NCBI GenBank assembly: GCA_019119815.1
Contig: DWWH01000006.1
Span: 130-64,129 of the forward strand
Source of the DNA: Candidatus Eisenbergiella intestinipullorum
GTDB taxonomy: Bacteria; Bacillota; Clostridia; Lachnospirales; Lachnospiraceae
Length of the DNA: 64,000 nucleotides
Reading direction: 5' to 3'
Positions 3,448 to 60,861 of the stretch are shown here, one piece after another. A program made the translations under genes and the position numbers. The notes under the pieces were generated by a model, which was given only the letters and a program-made list of their open reading frames with translations, was not told where the DNA came from and did no database searches. The first letter of the stretch is position 1. Each line of letters begins with the position of its first letter.

Positions 3448-4770
3448 TCAATGCCCGAGCATGTTTTCAATAAAGATCCCATACCCTTTCGTGGGGTCGT
3501 TTACCAGTACATGGGTGACTGCGCCGATCAGCTTTCCATCCTGGATGATGGGTGCGCCGCTCATGCCCTGGACAATGCCGCCGGTCAGAGCCAGAAGGCG
3601 TTCATCCGTGACGGTGATCTCAAGCCCTCTGTTCACATTGTCATGATCCAGATGGATCCCTGTGATCTCGATGGTATACAGCTCCGGTTCGCCGCCCACG
3701 CTGCACAGGATTTCCGCCTCCCCTTCTGCCACCTCCTGTTTGAGTCCGACGGGGATGGCGGAGGAGATGATCCCGTCTGTGGCTTCCTCGTCCAGGCTGC
3801 CGTAGATCCCCTCTTCGGTATTGGCCTCTATGGTTCCGATCCGGTTGCTTTCCCCATAGTCGATCACGCCGGTCAGCTCGCCGGGAGCGCCGTTTTCCCC
3901 CCTGCGGATGGCTACGATCTGCGTCTGATACAGGCTGCCGCTTTCCAGATCCATCAGCTCCGCCGTGTCCACATCGTTGATGCCGTGTCCCAGCGCGCCG
4001 AAGCTGTTGTCCTCATCCAGCCAGGTGAGCGTGCCCACGCCCTGCGCATTGTCACGGATCCAGATCCCCAGCTTGTATTCCCCGTTCTGATTCTGCTCCG
4101 GCTGAAGGCTTACGTCAAACTGCTGTCCGTCCCTCTGAATGGTCAGAAGCATCTGTTTTCCTTCGCTGTCCGCGATGCGCTGCATGAATTCCGCCTTCCC
4201 CGTCACCTCCTCTCCGTTCGCTTTCAGGATGTAGTCTCCTTCCTTCAGGAGCCTGGCTGCAGGAGCATTCATCTGCCCTTCCGGCCCTTCAAATTCCCCG
4301 GTGGCGATCACCAGGACTCCTTTCGTCTTTACATAGATGCCGATGGGAATTCCCGCCGGGATCAGGGTCCTGTCATCGATCACCTCCACCTGCACGGTCT
4401 TAAAAGGGATCAGGCCGAACAGCTTCAGCTGCATGGTATAGCTTTCCAGCTCCTGCGCATACAGTGTAAGGGGCCTGCTCAGATCCACCGGCAGGCTTTC
4501 GGAGGAAGTGCTGCCGGTCACGCTCCTTCCCACGGCCGCCACCGCTTCTTCTTTGTATCCGTCTTCTTTCTTTTCTCCCGCTTCCTCATTCCGGTAAACT
4601 TCCCCTGATGCGGGAACATTCAGGTCCAACTCCTGCTGCACGCCTGCCCGGATATGGATCATGCCGGGCACACGGTTCCACAGAAGGAACATCCAACATA
4701 TAAAAAGCGCCGCAACGGCACAGATAAGGATCAGACACAGGATCAATCTGTATTTTCGTCTCCTTTCCAA
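3448..4770 (-). CDS. spoIVB: SpoIVB peptidase (S55 family, PDZ domain)
   Basis: N-terminal TM segment, PDZ-like LLKEGDYILKANGEEV, and S55 catalytic region GVGTLTW..FGALGHGI and GMSGAPIIQDGKLIGAVTHVLVNDPTKGYGIFIENM. Synteny is recN-spoIVB-spo0A. Apparent TTG start. Confidence 0.9.
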   Translation of the reverse strand: MERRRKYRLILCLILICAVAALFICWMFLLWNRVPGMIHIRAGVQQELDLNVPASGEVYRNEEAGEKKEDGYKEEAVAAVGRSVTGSTSSESLPVDLSRPLTLYAQELESYTMQLKLFGLIPFKTVQVEVIDDRTLIPAGIPIGIYVKTKGVLVIATGEFEGPEGQMNAPAARLLKEGDYILKANGEEVTGKAEFMQRIADSEGKQMLLTIQRDGQQFDVSLQPEQNQNGEYKLGIWIRDNAQGVGTLTWLDEDNSFGALGHGINDVDTAELMDLESGSLYQTQIVAIRRGENGAPGELTGVIDYGESNRIGTIEANTEEGIYGSLDEEATDGIISSAIPVGLKQEVAEGEAEILCSVGGEPELYTIEITGIHLDHDNVNRGLEITVTDERLLALTGGIVQGMSGAPIIQDGKLIGAVTHVLVNDPTKGYGIFIENMLGH

Positions 4771-30852: not shown

Positions 30853-30881
30853 TCACCGAATTGATTTATTTCTCCAGCTCT

Positions 30882-31016
30882 GTTACAGCTCAGTCTTCGG
30901 CAAATCTGTAACGGCATCCGGCCATTCCAAGCGCTTCGCGCCAGGCCGGATGCTTCCAGCCGGTCTGTTTTCGTACGGTCTGCGCATTCACTGCGCAGAC
31001 CTGGCTGAGTAGTAAT
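30882..31016 (+). mobile_element. 135-bp MITE-like element, copy 1 (inside the 3' end of phnX)
   Basis: 94-96% identical to copies at 49083-49217 and 58453-58587. Terminal inverted repeats GTTACAGCTCAG.. / ..CTGAGTAGTAA(T). Flanked by the 8-bp direct repeat CCAGCTCT (30874-30881 and 31017-31024). Confidence 0.85.
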
Positions 31017-31797
31017 CCAGCTCTTCCAGAAAGGCGGGAAGCTCTGACAGGTTCCGCAGCACTGCGGTTGCGCCGGCCGCGAGGAACTTCTCTCTCACCT
31101 GTCCGCACAGCCTTTCTTTTTCTTCCGCGGGAAGCGCTTCATATTCCTCTTCGGTAAGCCCCATGGCGGAGCTTCCTTCCAGAATGCCAAGGGAAGGCAT
31201 GCCGGCCGCCAGCCCCTCTTTAATATCAGAGACCGTATCACCGACCTTGACGGCGGCGGCTACGGAAGTGACCTCCAGCTTTTTCAGATTTTCAAAAATC
31301 ATATAGGGATAGGAGCGGCCGAAATTGCCCACGCTGTTCGGGGAAAACCAGCAGTCCGGGCTGTAGCCCTTTTCAGCGGCCGCCGGGACCACGATCCGCA
31401 TCATTTCGTCCGTATATCCTGTGGTGGAACCGATCCTGATGCCTTCTTCCCGCAGCTTCCGCACCACCTCCAGAACATGCGGCTTGGGATCTGCAAACCT
31501 GTGCACGATCCTGAGAATGCTTTTTTCCGAAGTCTGATAGACCTGCTCCACATCCGCTTCCGTGAAATCCCTTCCATGGACCCGCTTCCATTCACCGCGG
31601 ATGCGTTCCATATTCATCATGGTGCGGACGTGATCCCTCTTCAGCATTCCCATGGGTTCCCGCACCTCTGCCAGGGTGGGCGTGATCCCATATTCCTCAA
31701 AGGCCGTGATAAAGGCCTGCACCGGTGCGAAGCAGCCATAGTCCACCGTGGTACCCGCCCAGTCAAGGATCACCGCTTCTGTTTTTCTCCTGTTCAT
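30988..31797 (-). CDS. phnX: Phosphonoacetaldehyde hydrolase (phosphonatase), C-terminus supplied by the MITE
   Basis: HAD-type MNRRKTEAVILDWAGTTVDYGCFAP.. with catalytic DWAGT and the Lys-containing cap (..MGMLKRDH..). The last 8 codons and the stop lie inside the repeat element. Confidence 0.9.
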   Translation of the reverse strand: MNRRKTEAVILDWAGTTVDYGCFAPVQAFITAFEEYGITPTLAEVREPMGMLKRDHVRTMMNMERIRGEWKRVHGRDFTEADVEQVYQTSEKSILRIVHRFADPKPHVLEVVRKLREEGIRIGSTTGYTDEMMRIVVPAAAEKGYSPDCWFSPNSVGNFGRSYPYMIFENLKKLEVTSVAAAVKVGDTVSDIKEGLAAGMPSLGILEGSSAMGLTEEEYEALPAEEKERLCGQVREKFLAAGATAVLRNLSELPAFLEELDYYSARSAQ

Positions 31798-31800
31798 CTC

Positions 31801-32166
31801 TTACCCCTCCTTCTGACAATGGGCTTCCAGAAATTCCTTCATAATACCGCATACCCGGTCGATGTCCTCCGGATAGATCTCCCCGATGTTTCCGATGCGG
31901 AAGGTATCGGCATCCGTCACCTTTCCGGGATAGATCGCATAGCCCCGCTCCTTGATATAACGGTACATCTCGTCGAAGGGAAAATGCCTTCCCTCCGGAT
32001 AAAAGAAGGTCGTGATGACCCGGGCCATGCTCCCGGCAGCCGTCACGATCCTGGCCGGGATCTCCTCTGTCTTTTCCTCTCCGGTCAGGGGATAACCGTA
32101 TCTGGTCCGGAAAGCCCCATCCGCTTTCCCGAGGGCCTCAGTCCCCCATACTGCGCTTCGATCCAA
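31801..32166 (-). pseudogene. phnW: Remnant of 2-aminoethylphosphonate-pyruvate transaminase (C-terminal ~90 aa only)
   Basis: ..ARVITTFFYPEGRHFPFDEMYRYIKERGYAIYPGKVTDADTFRIGNIGEIYPEDIDRVCGIMKEFL is the C-terminal small domain of PhnW/class-V aminotransferases. The PLP-binding large domain is absent. Weak frame-shifted similarity may continue to ~32330. Confidence 0.6.
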
Positions 32167-32395
32167 AGGCGGATCCCCTTTTCCATGCTCTCCTCCGTTC
32201 CGGAGCGATGCAGTCTCCGCTCCTGTAGTTTCTCTACAATTTTCCCCGCTCTGTTTTCCTTCCCCGGCACGCCTTCTGCCTCTGCTCTCCTGTCCGGCGG
32301 CAAAATCCGGCCAAAGTAAAAATTATGTAAAGTCCCGCAGCAGGCGCTGCCGCTTTGTCCTGTCTGCTGTCCTGCCGCATTTGGAACAACGGTCT

Positions 32396-32449
32396 CCAAA
32401 ATTTTGAAAGGCTTCCGGGAAACCTTTTCCGGTCTCTCGGAAGCCTTTC
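32396..32449 (-). terminator. Terminator hairpin after the NlpC/P60 gene
   Basis: 12-bp stem GAAAGGCTTCCG / CGGAAGCCTTTC followed on the minus strand by AAAATTTT, about 65 nt after the stop at 32516. Confidence 0.55.
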
Positions 32450-32515
32450 ATAAACCATACCCCATACGTCATATGTGCCGGGGCGCATCTCTTTTCTTTA
32501 TGCTCCGGTCCCGTC

Positions 32516-33547
32516 TCAGGTATTCAGCACCCGCTTTACCGCATAGGGAGTTCGGTAGGAAGCATTGGAGATCTTAATGCCCGTTCTCGCGTTGCTGGCA
32601 TGAATCACCTGGCCGTTTCCAATATAGATCGCCACATGGTTGACCCTTCCGTTCTTCGCATAGAATACCAGGTCTCCAGGCTGCGCCTCAGACAGGCTGA
32701 CCTTGCTTCCCACCGTACTCTGCGCCGAAGAAGTCCTCGGCAGGGATACGCCGTATTTTTTGAAAATGCTCTGCACGAAGCCGGAGCAGTCCGCTCCGTT
32801 GGTCAGGCTGGTGCCGCCCCAGACATAAGGATTGCCCAGAAACTGCTTCGCATAATTGACCAGATCCACCCGCACGTCGGAAACGCCCTTGCCATAGATC
32901 AGCTCGGTCTGTGTCACCGCCCGGTCCAGCTTCTTTGCGATGTTCACATAATCGGCGGAAACATAGGCCTCTTCATCATCCAGCATGATCTTCACCCAGC
33001 CGTCCAGCTGCTCCACGACTTCCAGCTCCTCGCCTTCCGCTACCAGCGTGATGACCGGACTTTCCGTGCTGGGCTCCTCGCGCACGCGCAGGCCGCCGGA
33101 ATTGCAGACCGCCATGTCGGTGGCTACCTCATCCGCCCGGTCTCTCGCTTCCTTTCCGGTCAGCAGATATTCCGCCTTCACATAGCCCGTCACCTTTCCG
33201 GACTTGATATAGGCCCATCCGTCCTCGATCTCATAAACTTCGCAGCCGCTGTTTTTGCTCATCTTGCCGACCAGCTTGCCGTCCTCGGAGGGCTCCTCTC
33301 TCACATTCAGATAATTGGATACGTTTGCGATGCCCAGATTGCTGAAGCCATAGATGGCCTTCCGCTCATTCTTCGCTTCCTCAGCGGCAGCCAGATAATC
33401 CTCCTCCGCCAGGTCAGCTTCCAGGATCTGACCCACGCCGGCGGAAGGCAGAGCTGATGTCTGAGCTGCCAGAACCGGTTCCGACCAGACAAGACAGAGC
33501 GCTGCTCCGACTGCAAACAACCTCATCGCTTTCGTTCCCTTGATCAT
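32516..33547 (-). CDS. Secreted NlpC/P60 (C40) peptidoglycan endopeptidase with SH3b repeats
   Basis: Signal peptide MRLFAVGAALCLVWSEPVLA, two SH3b-like repeats (..GWAYIKSGKVTGYV.., ..GWVKIMLDDEEAYV..), and C-terminal catalytic YVWGGTS...GADCSGFV...GDLVFY...NHVAIYIG. ATG 33547 is preceded by GGAGAAGG. Confidence 0.9.
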   Translation of the reverse strand: MIKGTKAMRLFAVGAALCLVWSEPVLAAQTSALPSAGVGQILEADLAEEDYLAAAEEAKNERKAIYGFSNLGIANVSNYLNVREEPSEDGKLVGKMSKNSGCEVYEIEDGWAYIKSGKVTGYVKAEYLLTGKEARDRADEVATDMAVCNSGGLRVREEPSTESPVITLVAEGEELEVVEQLDGWVKIMLDDEEAYVSADYVNIAKKLDRAVTQTELIYGKGVSDVRVDLVNYAKQFLGNPYVWGGTSLTNGADCSGFVQSIFKKYGVSLPRTSSAQSTVGSKVSLSEAQPGDLVFYAKNGRVNHVAIYIGNGQVIHASNARTGIKISNASYRTPYAVKRVLNT

Positions 33548-49060: not shown

Positions 49061-49082
49061 GGGAAAAGGCAGCTTTTTCTTT

Positions 49083-49217
49083 GTTACAGCTCAGCCTTCG
49101 GCAGATCTGTAACGGCATCCGGCCATTCCAGGCGCTTCGCGCCAGGCCGGATGCTTCCAGCCGGTCTGTTTTCGTACGGTCTGCGCAGGGAATGCGCAGA
49201 CCTGGCTGAGTAGTAAC
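49083..49217 (+). mobile_element. 135-bp MITE-like element, copy 2
   Basis: TIRs GTTACAGCTCAGCC / GGCTGAGTAGTAAC. Flanked by the perfect 8-bp direct repeat TTTTCTTT (49075-49082 and 49218-49225). Confidence 0.9.
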
Positions 49218-49320
49218 TTTTCTTTTCCGTGCCGGCCGGCGGCCGGAACGGGCCCAAACAGAAGCCCGGCATTCCCTGACAGCCCGGGTTTCCAAGCAAC
49301 CGGTGCTTCGCAGCTGTTCC

Positions 49321-50022
49321 TCATGCGTTCACAAGTGCGCGGAACAGGGCAAGGCTGTTTTCATCCTTTCGGAAGGAGTGCTCCGGATGCCACTGCACTG
49401 CGAGGAAAAAGCATTTCCCGGGCATCCAGGCAGCCTCGATCAGGCCGTCCGGAGACAGCGCCATGGGCTTTAAGGAGGGTGCAAGCTTCCGGATCGCCTG
49501 ATGGTGTCGGCTGTTGACGCCCAGCGTCTTTTTCTGAACGAGCTCGAACAGAGGCGTATGCTCCAGAACCTCCACCTCATGCTCGCTTCTGTCAAAGGGC
49601 GGCTTCATCTCATGCTCCACCGCAGACGGATGCTGTGTGGGAAGATCCTGGTAAAGGGTTCCTCCCAGCGCCGCGTTGATAAACTGCAGGCCGCGGCAGA
49701 TTCCAAGGATCGGAAGGTCCCGCTCCAGGGCAGCGTCCAGCAGCAGCTTTTCCATATGATCCCGTTCCGGAATACTCCTTCCGCACTCCGGAAGAGGCGT
49801 TTCTCCATAAAGGGAAGGGGAAACGTCGTGGCCGCCGGTGAAAATCAGGCCGTCCAGACGGTCCAGGAGTTCGGAAATATCTGTCTTTTCTTCCATAAGC
49901 GGCAGCATGACGGGGATTCCGCCCGCAGCGAAAACGCCATCCATATAGCCCGGAAGCATCCACAGGCTTTCTCTGTCCAGGTCAAATAACGGCACCAGGC
50001 CGATGCATGGTTTCTTTTTCAT
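49321..50022 (-). CDS. Gamma-glutamyl-GABA hydrolase-like class I glutamine amidotransferase (peptidase C26)
   Basis: ..GLIFTGGHDVSP.., GICRGLQFINAALGG (nucleophile Cys), ..QWHPE.. (His). ATG 50022 is preceded by AAGGAGAA. Confidence 0.9.
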   Translation of the reverse strand: MKKKPCIGLVPLFDLDRESLWMLPGYMDGVFAAGGIPVMLPLMEEKTDISELLDRLDGLIFTGGHDVSPSLYGETPLPECGRSIPERDHMEKLLLDAALERDLPILGICRGLQFINAALGGTLYQDLPTQHPSAVEHEMKPPFDRSEHEVEVLEHTPLFELVQKKTLGVNSRHHQAIRKLAPSLKPMALSPDGLIEAAWMPGKCFFLAVQWHPEHSFRKDENSLALFRALVNA

Positions 50023-50297
50023 CTTCTGTTCTCCTTGTAGCATTGATGTCGGAATATCTGTTCAAAAATACTTCCGGTCTGTTTTTCATCTCCATAATCC
50101 AGAGGTTCATCCACATAGCACAGCGCGAAAAAAGGGTCAATATTCTGAAGATTTTCCGGCAGGCTTTTCCATAAGCCGTACATTCCGGTGGCGAACGCTT
50201 TTATGTCTGAAGAATGTTCGTAGCTTTCCTGAAGCTTTCGGAGAAAAAGCCTTCCGAATTTCTGCTGATCGAAGCCGTGCGGGATCGATATGGGTTC
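50019..50297 (-). pseudogene. Start-less 92-codon open frame abutting the amidotransferase gene (possible gene remnant)
   Basis: Minus frame EPISIPHGFDQQKFGRLFLRKLQESYEH..GMYGLWKSLPENLQNIDPFFALCYVDEPLDYGDEKQTGSIFEQIFRHQCYKENRR*. Its TGA overlaps the amidotransferase ATG (ATGA). There is no ATG/GTG/TTG before codon 45, and upstream frames are broken by stops. Confidence 0.3.
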
Positions 50298-50470: not shown

Positions 50471-50745
50471 GGCGGCGGGGAGATGGGGTGGCCTCTCTCT
50501 GCGCTGTGGGGCCCCCATTTGGAAGTCGCCCTAGCGGGCTCCTTCCTCTGGGGGCAGCGGGGATGAGGCGGCCTCTCTCTGCGCTGTGGAGCCCCCATTT
50601 GGAAGTCGCCCTGGCGGGCTCCTTCCTCTGGGGGCCGCGGGGGATGAGTGGCCTCTCTCTGCGCTGTGGAGCCCCCATTTGGAAGTCGCCTGGCGGGCTC
50701 CTTCCTCTGGGGGGGGCAGTGAGGGGATGAGTGGCCTCTCTCTAC
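50471..50745. repeat. Tandem array of ~80-bp units (3 full, plus partial and diverged flanking copies)
   Basis: Units start at 50490, 50570 and 50650 (80, 80 and 83 bp), with only a few substitutions between units. A diverged fourth unit starts at 50733. Each unit contains a ~43-nt GC-rich hairpin. Confidence 0.9.
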
Positions 50746-50747
50746 GG

Positions 50748-50894
50748 ATGATGCCCCCTGGGATTTCTTTGAAATCCCAGCCCATTCGGAATCCGCCCCT
50801 GCGGGGCTCCTTCCTCATGGGAGGCAGGTGCCAAGGGCAGCCGTTCCTCCATGCAAGCATGGGAACGGCTGTCTTTGGCACCCTGGGGCATCAT
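50748..50894. ncRNA. Predicted four-helix structured element at the polC 3' end (function and strand unknown)
   Basis: 10-bp closing helix ATGATGCCCC (50748-57) / GGGGCATCAT (50885-94) enclosing three abutting hairpins: 50758-50780, 50781-50821 and 50827-50882. Hand-folded only. Confidence 0.3.
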
Positions 50895-57043: not shown

Positions 57044-58276
57044 TTATTTCTTCTGCAGGAAATCCGGGATCTTCAGCGTCTTCTCCTCCACGTTGCTTCT
57101 CAGGCTGCCCGGTCTGCGGATCCCGCTCAGGCCCTGCCCCTGCTGAGGCTGGGATGCGGGTCTGGACTGCTGCGTTCCGGCGGGACGGGGCTGAACGGGC
57201 GCCGTCTTCGTTGCGGGCATATAGGGTCTTGCCGCTGCGGCGGGCTGAACCTGCCTCACGCCGCCCACCGAAGGCTTCACGCTGAAGGAAGAGCCGATCC
57301 TGCCGGCCTGCTGCTGATTCAGAGCCTTGTCCTCCAGACCGGTGGCGATCACCGTGATCGTGCAGGTATCCGGCGTGGTATCGTCGTACATCGCGCCGAA
57401 AATAATGTTCACATCGTCGCCGGTCAGCTGCTGCACATAGCTGGCCGCATCGTCCGCATCATACATGGAAATATCTCCGCTGACATTGATGATCACATCT
57501 GTAGCTCCGGAGATCGTAGTCTCCAGCAGAGGGCTTTCCACAGCCATCTTGACCGCGTCAGAGGCCTTGTCGTCGCCCTTGCCGTGCCCGATTCCGATAT
57601 GGGCGATGCCCTTGTCCTTCATGACGGTCTGCACATCCGCGAAATCCAGATTGATGACTGCGGGCACATTGATCAGATCCGTTATTCCCTGCACGCCCTG
57701 CTGAAGGACTTCATCCGCCTTCTTCAAAGCTTCCGGCATGGTAGTCCTGCGGTCCACGATCTCCAGGATCTTGTCGTTGGGGATCACAATCAGCGTATCC
57801 ACGCTGTTCTTCAGCCGCTCGATCCCGCCCAGCGCATTGGTCATGCGGGTCCTCGCCTCAAAGCGGAAGGGCTTCGTCACCACGCCTACCGTCAGAATGC
57901 CCATGTCCTTTGCGATCCCCGCGATCACGGGAGCTGCTCCCGTTCCGGTTCCGCCGCCCATGCCGCAGGTCACGAACACCATGTCCGCGCCGGTCAGCGC
58001 ATTCGTGATCTCTTCCGTGCTCTCCTCCGCCGCTTTCTGTCCCACTTCGGGCTTCGCGCCGGCACCGAGTCCTTTCGTCAGCTTCTCTCCGATCTGCAAA
58101 AGCTTGGGCGCCTTGCAGAGCTGAAGCGCCTGCCTGTCCGTATTCACTCCGATAAATTCTACACCGTCGATCTTCTCATCGATCATTCTATTCACAGCAT
58201 TATTGCCTGCTCCGCCCACACCGATCACAATGATCCTTGCGGAAGCCTCAGCATCGTTTGACTTGATTTCCAGCAA
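57044..58276 (-). CDS. ftsZ: Cell division protein FtsZ
   Basis: [32 protein letters not shown] (tubulin signature), Gln/Pro-rich linker and C-terminal ..[13 protein letters not shown] 58276 is 8 nt behind AAGGAGG. Confidence 0.95.
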
Positions 58277-58394
58277 AGGTATTTCCTCCTTTTTCAGCCG
58301 CCCACCGCAGTCCCTGCCCCCGGACAGCATTTCTTTACCGGAGCCGCAGACATGCCCGGCCCCTTCTTCTCTCTCAAGAAGCTTCACAATTCAT

Positions 58395-58423: not shown

Positions 58424-58452
58424 CCTCTTTTTTTCACTTTTCTTTCACAGAA

Positions 58453-58587
58453 GTTACAGCTCAGCCTTCGGCAGATCTGTAACGGCATCCGGCCATTCCA
58501 AGCGCTTCGCACCAGGCCGGATGCTTCCAGCCGGTCTGTTTTCGTACGGTCTGCGCAGGGAATGCGCAGGCCTGGCTGAGCAGCAAC
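58453..58587 (+). mobile_element. 135-bp MITE-like element, copy 3 (between ftsQ and ftsZ)
   Basis: Flanked by the perfect 8-bp direct repeat TCACAGAA (58445-58452 and 58588-58595). The right TIR has two transitions (GAGCAGCAAC). Confidence 0.9.
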
Positions 58588-58706
58588 TCACAGAATGCTG
58601 CTGTTGGTTCCTGTTCACGGGCAAGCCAGCGAACAAAAACCCGGTCCGTCTGCCGCCGCAGGCGCCGGCAGTGGCCGGGGCTTCCCGGCCGTGTGTCTGC
58701 ATGCGG

Positions 58707-59585
58707 TCATTCGTCCAGCTCGAAGGAAACATTTTCCCCGCTTCCGGAATAATTTTCCAGGCGGAAGACACCCTTCTTCCCCTCCGCGCTCGGGAGCAGC
58801 TGCTGCAGTCTTGATACCTTTTCTTCTATGTTTTCCTCGCTCCCCAGCCGCGCCCTGACCTCTCCGAAGTACAGGGTCATGTCTCCGGCATCGTCAAAGT
58901 AGATCTTGTCCGCGCTGAGCCCGTACTTGGAAAGGATCTGCGTGATGGAAAGGATCTCCCGGAAAATGTTCTGATTTTCCACCGGCAGCGCCTCATAGAG
59001 CACCACCTGATCAAAGTCGATCCCCGTGATCTCCGGTATGCCTTCGGTCTTGGCCTCCGAAGCCTCCACCACGATACCGTCCCGGTCAAAATACATGTAC
59101 CGGTCCAGATATTCCACATAACCGGCAACGGATTTTTCATAGACGACGATCCGGATCGTGTCGGGAGAGAGCACCTTGACATCCATGGTCTGGATGAACG
59201 GGATGCCCTGGATGCCTCTGTCCCTGTATTTCAGGGAAAGATAAAGGGAGTTGTCCCCGAATCTGCCTCCGGTCACCATCTGGATGATCTCGTCGCTCGT
59301 ATAATGAAGATTTCCTTCCACGTAGATGTTTTCCACATGGAAATACTGCATCAGGAACACAAAGACAGCCGCCAGGACGGCTACGGTCCCGAGAATGGCA
59401 GAAAAAAGGAGGAGCCGTCTTCTGCCGCTTCTGCGCTGCAGGCTTTCCAGGCTGCTTCTCTTTTCACGGGTCAGACCGGAGGCGCCTGATATGACCCGGA
59501 ACCGGCTCCTTGCTGCTTTCACAGATGCCGCAGGCAGCACGCCCGTATGCCTTCCCGGTTTCTTTTTTGCCGTTTTTCTGTCCAT
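58707..59585 (-). CDS. ftsQ: Cell division protein FtsQ/DivIB (POTRA domain)
   Basis: Basic N-terminus, TM segment LLLFSAILGTVAVLAAVFVFL, POTRA ..VENIYVEGNLHYTSDEI.., FtsQ beta-domain. ATG 59585 was chosen. Confidence 0.8.
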   Translation of the reverse strand: MDRKTAKKKPGRHTGVLPAASVKAARSRFRVISGASGLTREKRSSLESLQRRSGRRRLLLFSAILGTVAVLAAVFVFLMQYFHVENIYVEGNLHYTSDEIIQMVTGGRFGDNSLYLSLKYRDRGIQGIPFIQTMDVKVLSPDTIRIVVYEKSVAGYVEYLDRYMYFDRDGIVVEASEAKTEGIPEITGIDFDQVVLYEALPVENQNIFREILSITQILSKYGLSADKIYFDDAGDMTLYFGEVRARLGSEENIEEKVSRLQQLLPSAEGKKGVFRLENYSGSGENVSFELDE

Positions 59586-59610
59586 CCCTGTCGCTTCCTT
59601 TTCCAATCGT

Positions 59611-60861
59611 CTATCCGTCCTGCACACAGGCTCCCAGCAGCCGCAGGTCCCGGCAGATATCCTCATATCCCCTGTCCACATAAAAACGGTTTTCCACCGT
59701 CGTTTCTCCCTGTGCGCACAGACCTGCGATCACGAGGGCCGCTCCCCCTCTCAGCTCCGAAGCCCTGACGCGCTTTCCCGTAAGCATCCGCCCTCCGGGC
59801 ACGACAGCCGTATCCGCGTCCAGTCTTATCCCCGCTCCCATGCGGTTCAGCTCCTTCACAACGCCGAAACGTCCGTTGAAGACCGTTTCCTTCATGCTGC
59901 TTTCGCCTTCCGCCTGTGCCATCGCCACAAGAAGAGGAGACTGCAGATCCGTCGGGAAAGCGGGAAAGCTTCCTGTCTCCACCCTGCCGGGAGAGAAAAG
60001 CGGAGAGGTCCGTTTCACCCACAGCGCATTCTGCGTCCGTCTCAGGCTCGCTCCCATCCGCTCTGCCACAGCTTCCAGCGCACCGTTTTCTCCTTCAGGC
60101 GCCCCTTTTAAACGGACCTCCCCTCCGGCAGCCAGACAGGCGCACAGATAGGTGCCTGCCACGATGCGGTCCGCAGGGATCGTATAGGTGCACGGATGCA
60201 GGCTCTTCCTTCCGCGGATCAGAAGCCTTCCCGGTCCCTGCCTCCGGATCGAAGCACCGCAGTGGGTGAGAAAATCGCAGAGCCAGCCGATCTCCGGCTC
60301 CTGCGCGCAGTTTTCCAGGCAGGTCACCCCGTCCGCCAGCACCGCTGCCATGACCACATTTTCCGTGGCCCCGACGCTGGGATAAGCCAGCCGCAGGGAG
60401 GTTCCCCGCAGTCCGCTGCAGACCGCCGCAAGTCCTTTCCCGTCGTCCCGGCAGGATGCCCCCATCCGGGAGAGCGCCTTTACATGCAGGTCAATGGGAC
60501 GGTCACCGATGACGCAGCCCCCCGGATGGCTCAGGGAAACCTCTCCCAGCCGCCCCAGAAGAGGCCCCATCAGCATAACGGAGGAACGCATCCGGGTCAC
60601 ATATTCTTCCGGAAGGCGGCTGTCCGAAAGCTGCGCCGCGTCGATCCGGATCTCCCTTTTTTCCCGCTCGATCCGGCATCCGATGCTCTCAAGAATACGG
60701 CACATATATTCCACATCCGCTATGCGGGGACAGTTCCTGAGTACACACACTCCCGGCACCAGAAGGGCAGCCGCCATGATCGGCAGCGCCGCGTTCTTGG
60801 AGCCCTGGATCGTCACTTCGCCGTACAAAGACGCGTTTCCGCGGATATAAACAGACTTCAA
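59611..60861 (-). CDS. murA: UDP-N-acetylglucosamine 1-carboxyvinyltransferase
   Basis: GEVTIQGSKNAALPIMAAALL, catalytic-loop HPGGCVIGDRPIDLH (Cys), ..FPTDLQ.., ..VDRGYE.. are EPSP-synthase-fold MurA motifs. Confidence 0.9.
   Translation of the reverse strand: MKSVYIRGNASLYGEVTIQGSKNAALPIMAAALLVPGVCVLRNCPRIADVEYMCRILESIGCRIEREKREIRIDAAQLSDSRLPEEYVTRMRSSVMLMGPLLGRLGEVSLSHPGGCVIGDRPIDLHVKALSRMGASCRDDGKGLAAVCSGLRGTSLRLAYPSVGATENVVMAAVLADGVTCLENCAQEPEIGWLCDFLTHCGASIRRQGPGRLLIRGRKSLHPCTYTIPADRIVAGTYLCACLAAGGEVRLKGAPEGENGALEAVAERMGASLRRTQNALWVKRTSPLFSPGRVETGSFPAFPTDLQSPLLVAMAQAEGESSMKETVFNGRFGVVKELNRMGAGIRLDADTAVVPGGRMLTGKRVRASELRGGAALVIAGLCAQGETTVENRFYVDRGYEDICRDLRLLGACVQDG

Follow-up and report, generated by a model that had tools for sequence, protein, structure and literature searches.

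A MITE family with ISBst12-like ends in Eisenbergiella and other gut Lachnospiraceae

Insertion sequences of the IS66 family have ends that begin with GTAA and are accompanied by 8-bp direct repeats (PMC11946415). ISDge4, a member of the ISBst12 group of this family, has the ends GTGACTACTCAGCA / GTAACTGCTCAGCA and an 8-bp direct repeat, and its transposition has been observed in experiments (PMC12898284). It encodes a single transposase of 449 aa with demonstrated activity (PMC12898284; PMC8369957).

Here we describe a family of short repeats with similar ends, three copies of which lie in a stretch of 64,000 nucleotides from Candidatus Eisenbergiella intestinipullorum, a member of the Lachnospiraceae from the chicken gut for which metagenome-assembled genomes are available. 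The whole of this stretch is referred to as the window. We consider it probable, at roughly 85%, that these repeats are copies of a MITE whose mobilising enzyme is most likely a transposase of the ISBst12 group, present now or formerly in Eisenbergiella. A first-pass annotation of the window had proposed the transposase-mediated insertion of a non-autonomous element. This proposal is supported by 62 insertions with 8-bp duplications, by the existence of empty sites, by the non-coding nature of the element and by the lack of a match in Rfam.

The window copies and their gene surroundings

The window covers a housekeeping region that includes glgA, spoIVB, recN, dxs, xseA, the spoIIIA operon, pnp, infB, nusA, polC, ispG, ftsZ and murA. 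Three copies of the element, each 135 bp long and all in one orientation, are located on the + strand at 30882..31016 (copy 1), 49083..49217 (copy 2) and 58453..58587 (copy 3), as the first-pass annotation had reported and as direct reading and a script both confirmed. Each copy is bracketed by a perfect target-site duplication of 8 bp that differs from site to site, namely CCAGCTCT for copy 1 (30874..30881 on the left, 31017..31024 on the right), TTTTCTTT for copy 2 (49075..49082 and 49218..49225) and TCACAGAA for copy 3 (58445..58452 and 58588..58595). These site-specific repeats had been described before at exactly these positions, and on re-examination all three 8-mers proved to be perfectly duplicated. 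Outside the duplications the flanks of the copies are dissimilar, with 5-13/30 bases matching in the next 30 bases on each side. Pairwise identity among the copies is 94.1%, 91.9% and 96.3%; an earlier estimate of 94-96% holds for two of these pairs and fails for the one at 91.9%. Likewise, the reported 12/14 complementarity of the terminal inverted repeats is correct for copies 2 and 3, and copy 1 reaches 10/14. A 41-mer derived from the element matches three times in the window against 0 expected, repeat finding returned the same three copies, and no terminal-repeat-like sequence was found elsewhere in the 64 kb.

The element is organized as a left terminal inverted repeat (L), an inverted copy of this repeat three bases further in (L'), two internal hairpins and a right terminal inverted repeat (R). 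In copy 2, L is located at 49083..49096 (+ strand, GTTACAGCTCAGCC), L' at 49100..49113 (GTTACAGATCTGCC on the - strand), hairpin 2 at 49114..49154 (+ strand, GGCATCCGGCC ... GGCCGGATGC around GGCGC-TTC-GCGCC), hairpin 3 at 49178..49202 (+ strand, GGTCTGCGCA-GGGAA-TGCGCAGACC) and R at 49204..49217 (- strand, on which it reads GTTACTACTCAGCC). The third copy of the terminal repeat, L', had been overlooked in the first-pass annotation and has equivalents in copies 1 and 3. Together with L it forms a hairpin that spans the first 31 bp of the element, and it is also a direct repeat of R, at a spacing of 104 bp.

Copy 1 lies in the 3' end of a phnX-like gene (30988-31797, - strand), within its last codons, the final two of which have been replaced. 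Through this insertion the ancestral C-terminus ...LEELEK* has become ...LEELDYYSARSAQ*, and excising copy 1 together with one copy of the duplication gives back ...PAFLEELEK*. The phnX-like proteins of relatives terminate in ...YLEGLER* or ...LEGLEQ*, and in a related species (83% protein identity) the uninterrupted phnX-like DNA reads ...ctggaggggctggagagataa and lines up, base by base, with the empty site that we reconstructed. Copy 2 is intergenic, downstream of a Peptidase_C26 gene (49321-50043, - strand), and copy 3 lies in the cell-division gene cluster, between an ftsQ-like gene (58707-59681, - strand) and ftsZ (57044-58387, - strand). The window copies look fixed in the species, because the MITE-encoded tail is present in 4/4 members of the phnX-like protein cluster (HJC55973.1) and copy 3 occupies the identical site in both of the two other assemblies.

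Upstream of the disrupted phnX-like gene, at 31801-32516 (- strand), no more than a 121-aa C-terminal fragment of the 2-aminoethylphosphonate aminotransferase can be read, and the next gene begins after ~715 bp; in a related species this position is taken by an intact gene of 368 aa. The phosphonate-degradation gene pair may be decaying in Candidatus Eisenbergiella intestinipullorum. Read-through of copy 2 in another assembly has produced a spurious protein of 159 aa (P0124) in which the reading frame of the element switches midway, which implies that hairpin 2 of this copy 2 allele contains an indel or has been duplicated internally. Directly 3' of polC, at 50749-50893 (- strand), lies a Clostridiales-1 RNA (RF01699, 73.8 bits). 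It is followed by three tandem 80-nt repeats (50479-50718, - strand), each with a module of ~45 nt that is ~80% identical to the middle hairpin of the RNA, and the ORFs of 170 and 139 aa called over 50479-50893 in another assembly are probably spurious.

Spread, insertion sites and folding of the family

Exact patterns, the left 31-mer against a genome collection and an internal 26-mer against JGI metagenomes, gave no match; since they were exact for the copies of the window, its own species seems to be absent from both collections. Six-frame translations of the element were searched against a protein database and the contigs of the matching proteins were read. The 13 protein clusters found are spurious or chimeric, being read-through of other element copies, and the contigs behind them hold further copies in Candidatus Eisenbergiella intestinipullorum. 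The first-pass annotation had advised counting copies in the full genome and in close relatives. With a degenerate 25-mer for the left hairpin we identified 81 loci in the genome collection, which come from at least 10 species of Eisenbergiella or Lachnospiraceae and do not include the species of the window. The hosts include five more 'Candidatus Eisenbergiella' species (pullistercoris, stercorigallinarum, intestinigallinarum, merdipullorum and stercoravium) as well as uncultured Eisenbergiella, Lachnospiraceae, 'Eubacterium', Dorea and Faecalicatena genomes. More loci came from metagenomes scanned with a degenerate pattern. BLAST against plasmids gave chance matches only, and BLAST against phages gave only further relatives of the MITE, on human-faecal contigs that are labelled 'Bacteriophage sp.' and are unverified.

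Counting as an insertion any pair of terminal-repeat-like 14-mers with an 8-bp duplication, we catalogued 62 non-redundant insertions of 31-307 bp, in which the duplication is perfect in 44 and 7/8 in 18. The sizes most often seen are 135 bp (19 insertions), 31 bp (13) and 152 bp (nine), with the other 21 spread over 69-307 bp; the long forms are internal duplications or nested inserts and not gene remnants. The terminal consensus of the family is GTWACWRYTCAGCC, with the paired ends written GTWACWRYTCAGCC ... GGCTGARYWGTWAC, and in the commonest subfamily elsewhere the ends are perfectly complementary (14/14). Target sites are AT-rich and without a consensus. An antisense bias relative to genes, suggested by the window, was gone across 39 elements, in which orientation is unbiased (8 sense and 8 antisense by crude gene calls).

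Other MITE subfamilies (L084 3064-3228; L039 1805-1947; L151 ~1222-1423 and 4350-4482) have unrelated interiors and share with the element only the 11-bp repeat core GTWACWGTTCA and the 8-bp duplication, and some of these subfamilies likewise open with two inverted terminal repeats that form a hairpin. A 307-bp copy (L016 7260-7566) holds a nested insert of ~160 bp, which is bounded by 17-bp inverted ends of its own (AGAGCGTGTTTGAAAAT...) and may represent another small element that has entered the MITE.

Orthologous empty sites, which the first-pass annotation had proposed as a check, were found for four insertions, one of them copy 1 of the window, whose target is present once at L179/L180. 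The 165-bp variant in L084 corresponds to empty sites in L104 and L097, with the target TTCTATTC present once, and the 135-bp copy in L079 corresponds to an empty site in L099, with CCTTTACG present once. For the 134-bp copy in L115, the target is GAGGGCGT and the empty site in L032 reads GAGGGCAT, once. In all four the target is single when the element is missing, and the repeats are therefore settled as insertions.

The thirteen 31-bp forms are L-L' hairpins on their own (solos), each with its own 8-bp duplication. At one orthologous site, L078 has a full 135-bp element and L040 a 31-bp solo, and the duplication is shared. A deletion between L' and R, which repeat each other directly at a spacing of 104 bp, would explain the solos, leaving a 31-bp hairpin that retains the original duplication, and the reciprocal event would give dimer-like forms of 251 bp. 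The only solo with a full-length orthologue (L040 against L078) points to an origin by deletion, and the dimer-like 251-bp form in L051 resembles the duplication expected as the reciprocal of the event that would generate solos. The other twelve solos may reflect independent movement.

Hairpin-rich elements with a 31-bp solo that superficially resembles a REPIN doublet call to mind a REP/REPIN-like or IS200/IS605-type palindrome, moved in single-stranded form by a tyrosine (HUH/Y1) transposase such as RAYT or TnpA. REP/REPIN and IS200/IS605 systems, however, are not known to make a target duplication, and they insert beside a fixed short motif. The elements of this family have an 8-bp duplication at every insertion and variable, AT-rich targets that lack a consensus, and their ends are genuine terminal inverted repeats with a match in a DDE family, so we regard this origin as extremely unlikely.

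As to the interior, the first-pass annotation had described it as non-coding and nearly all hairpins, including two 10-bp stems. Both stems are present, the element has no coding capacity, and its predicted folding lies far beyond that of shuffled sequences, at -42 kcal/mol as DNA (z -7.3 vs shuffles) and -76.5 kcal/mol as RNA (z -8.6), and the RNA of either strand folds much better than shuffles. An alignment of 28 distinct elements supports the three hairpins, with 98% of cells paired. Two-sided changes are seen in 10 pairs, compared with 4.6 +/- 1.2 for shuffles, of which 0/500 reach 10, and slid controls give at most 3. The strong folding and the compensatory changes in all three hairpins would suit structured RNA, as a family either of non-coding genes or of cis-regulatory elements, with the bracketing 8-mers as incidental features. 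We hold this explanation to be highly improbable, given that the 8-bp duplications are specific to each of the 62 sites and that empty sites exist elsewhere. The even split between sense and antisense orientation and the position of copy 1 inside a coding region also argue against it. Moreover, the hairpins change from Watson-Crick to Watson-Crick pairs, G-U intermediates are nearly missing, as expected of DNA palindromes, and one-sided changes occur in only 3 cells, a pattern that appears to fit DNA-level palindromes or hairpin-templated repair better than functional RNA. A comparison with Rfam covariance models, advised earlier as a way of recognising a known RNA family, matched none at the gathering score (the best match at a permissive threshold was 18 bits vs a cut-off of 74), and no promoter-like or terminator-like site was found within the element. 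On the anatomy of the insertions, we rejected integron attC sites, REPINs, IS200/IS605-derived palindromes and a structured RNA gene as identities for the family.

Ends of the ISBst12 group and the candidate mobilising enzyme

Autonomous elements of the ISBst12 group have ends similar to those of the MITE. An element on G. kaustophilus pHTA426 (1635 bp) has the ends GTATCTATTCAGCC / GTAACTATTCAGCC and the duplication GACGAGTT, and ISGst1 (1613 bp) has the ends GTAACTATTCAGCC / GTAACTATTCACCC and the duplication AAAAGAAC. Both ends read GTAACTACTCAGCT in a B. thuringiensis plasmid element (1630 bp, duplication AATTTATC) and GTTACTGCCCAGGC in an Acaryochloris plasmid element (1551 bp, duplication ACAAATGC). 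Eight IMG/VR loci, representing seven distinct elements of 1.6-1.9 kb, have ends GTAACT(A/G)TTCAG.. and perfect 8-bp duplications, and the right ends of ISBst12-group elements from an acidobacterium and from a human-gut contig read GTAACAATTCAGCT and GTTACTGTTCAGAG, respectively. In every autonomous ISBst12-group element with both ends paired (11 loci), the duplication is 8 bp long.

Compared with more than 20 ISBst12-group ends, read in annotated elements, in IMG/VR or in published work, the MITE ends match on average at 9-11/14 positions and at best at 13-14/14, whereas the mean match to the ends of classical three-gene IS66 elements (GTAAGCG...) is only 5-8/14. R of copy 2, GTTACTACTCAGCC, agrees at 13/14 with the ISBst12-group end of L171, GTAACTACTCAGCC, and L of copy 2, GTTACAGCTCAGCC, agrees with ends of this group at up to 11/14. 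The end of the commonest MITE subfamily, GTAACAGTTCAGCC, compares with the ISBst12-group end GTAACTGTTCAGCC. A match of at least 12/14 has a chance of ~3e-6 in a single comparison. Position 6 is A in most MITE copies and T in most ISBst12-group ends. Three autonomous elements (L162, L168 and L175) have, a short way in from one of their ends, an incomplete inverted repetition of the repeat's inner half, and such a subterminal half-repeat is a plausible origin of the L-L' hairpin. A literature search for the end sequence returned unrelated primer sequences only. The first-pass annotation had listed IS66 among the families with 8-bp duplications and had not assigned the terminal repeat to any described family; the ends can now be placed with the ISBst12 group of IS66.

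This assignment is based on 14 bp of end sequence and on the length of the duplication, and from it we infer that the mobiliser would be a single-gene DDE_Tnp_IS66 transposase of the ISBst12 group, present now or in the past in Eisenbergiella. Supplied in trans, the DDE transposase would recognise the 14-bp terminal inverted repeats, and the element would be inserted at cuts staggered by 8 bp, the repair of which would yield the 8-bp target duplication.

The first-pass annotation had stated that no transposase with matching ends lies in the window, and both domain and end searches agree, with no transposase domain found among the genes of the 64 kb. A motif search of the ~1.1 Mb of MITE-bearing loci found no IS66 TnpC or ISBst12-type transposase, and tblastn for both kinds against the window and all MITE-bearing loci gave no match at E <= 1. 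Longer elements with the same ends and a transposase, which had been suggested as the place to look for the parent, were sought in the same ~1.1 Mb, and no autonomous element with MITE ends and an 8-bp duplication was found, nor any pair more than 307 bp apart. IMG/VR contigs with the left-end hairpin of the MITE likewise held no autonomous element and no IS66/ISBst12-type transposase. A protein search with the ISBst12-like transposase of highest GC (L170) led to Acidobacteria and not to Eisenbergiella.

Three kinds of candidate parent were discarded. A 2203-bp segment in L058 has housekeeping genes inside and results from the coincidental pairing of two MITE copies, long segments repeated among the loci proved to be synteny rather than insertion sequences, and the GTAAGCG ends of classical IS66 elements from gut contigs (L153-L159) fit poorly.

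A MITE moved by another family with 8-bp duplications, such as IS256, ISL3, IS6 or IS1595, would leave the same footprint, its likeness to ISBst12 ends being convergent or coincidental. The lack of a cognate transposase in the window and in the ~1.1 Mb of loci, a link that consists of 14 bp alone and the usual difference from the ISBst12 consensus at position 6 leave some room for this. Yet the ends of IS256, ISL3, IS6 and IS1595 begin with GG or GA and not with GTAAC, and against more than 20 ISBst12-group ends, each read independently, the MITE ends reach up to 13-14/14, a degree of agreement seldom reached by chance. In addition, 14-bp ends and 8-bp duplications agree across all autonomous ISBst12-group elements examined. 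We therefore judge a mobiliser from another family to be unlikely and an ISBst12-group transposase to be the probable one.

The hairpin architecture could itself be functional and not incidental, either because the 31-bp palindrome is mobilisable or because a hairpinned or single-stranded end is used in ISBst12/IS66-type transposition, the mechanism of which is, to our knowledge, still poorly understood. We consider such a function rather doubtful. If a 31-bp palindrome of two terminal repeats were mobilisable, it would be among the smallest known transposons, and the use of a hairpinned or single-stranded end, if true, would explain the strictly Watson-Crick upkeep of three hairpins across subfamilies.

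Significance and comparison with known systems

Uncultured Lachnospiraceae of the chicken gut and of other guts carry the family in dozens of copies in each genome. It breaks metagenome assemblies, changes real genes and gives rise to gene calls that are spurious, among them 13 protein clusters of public databases. Among the host genes concerned, phnX has had its C-terminus rewritten by one copy, and another copy sits between an ftsQ-like gene and ftsZ; copies within operons are found in ftsQ-ftsZ and in rplL-rpoB. The link to ISBst12 offers a testable candidate transposase, together with natural minimal substrates of 135 bp and 31 bp, for the study of IS66-family transposition, and presence/absence polymorphisms could be used as strain markers. 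Apart from its value for annotation, for host genes, for the transposase link and as a source of strain markers, this is an ordinary mobile-element finding.

The closest described relatives are the members of the ISBst12 group (ISBst12, ISGst1, the ISGka4 family on pHTA426 and ISDge4), whose 14-bp end consensus GTAACT(A/G)TTCAGCC is matched at 13/14 by R of copy 2. Like the MITE, they have an 8-bp target duplication and no strong target consensus, and in some members a subterminal inverted half-repeat resembles the L-L' hairpin. They differ in being 1.5-1.9 kb long and in encoding a DDE_Tnp_IS66 transposase of 450-520 aa, whereas the MITE has 135 bp and no ORF, and between its interior, which consists of hairpins, and the autonomous ISBst12-group elements no similarity was detected. 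Classical three-gene IS66 elements (tnpA-tnpB-tnpC) share with the MITE the 8-bp duplications and ends starting with GTAA (PMC11946415; gut L153-L159), but they are 2.5-2.8 kb long and their GTAAGCG... ends extend over 20-30 bp.

Other bacterial MITEs, such as Correia/NEMIS of Neisseria, RUP of Streptococcus pneumoniae and ERIC/MITEEc1, are likewise short, non-coding and present in many copies, with terminal inverted repeats, target duplications and a strong fold-back potential. They too lie mostly between genes or at gene ends, and can change the 3' end of a gene. Correia and RUP have TA or 2-bp duplications. The element described here differs from these MITEs in its parent family, in its tripartite ends (L, L' and R) and in the 31-bp solos that keep the duplication, and it is thus a new family of a well-known kind, the MITE, and not a categorically new element.
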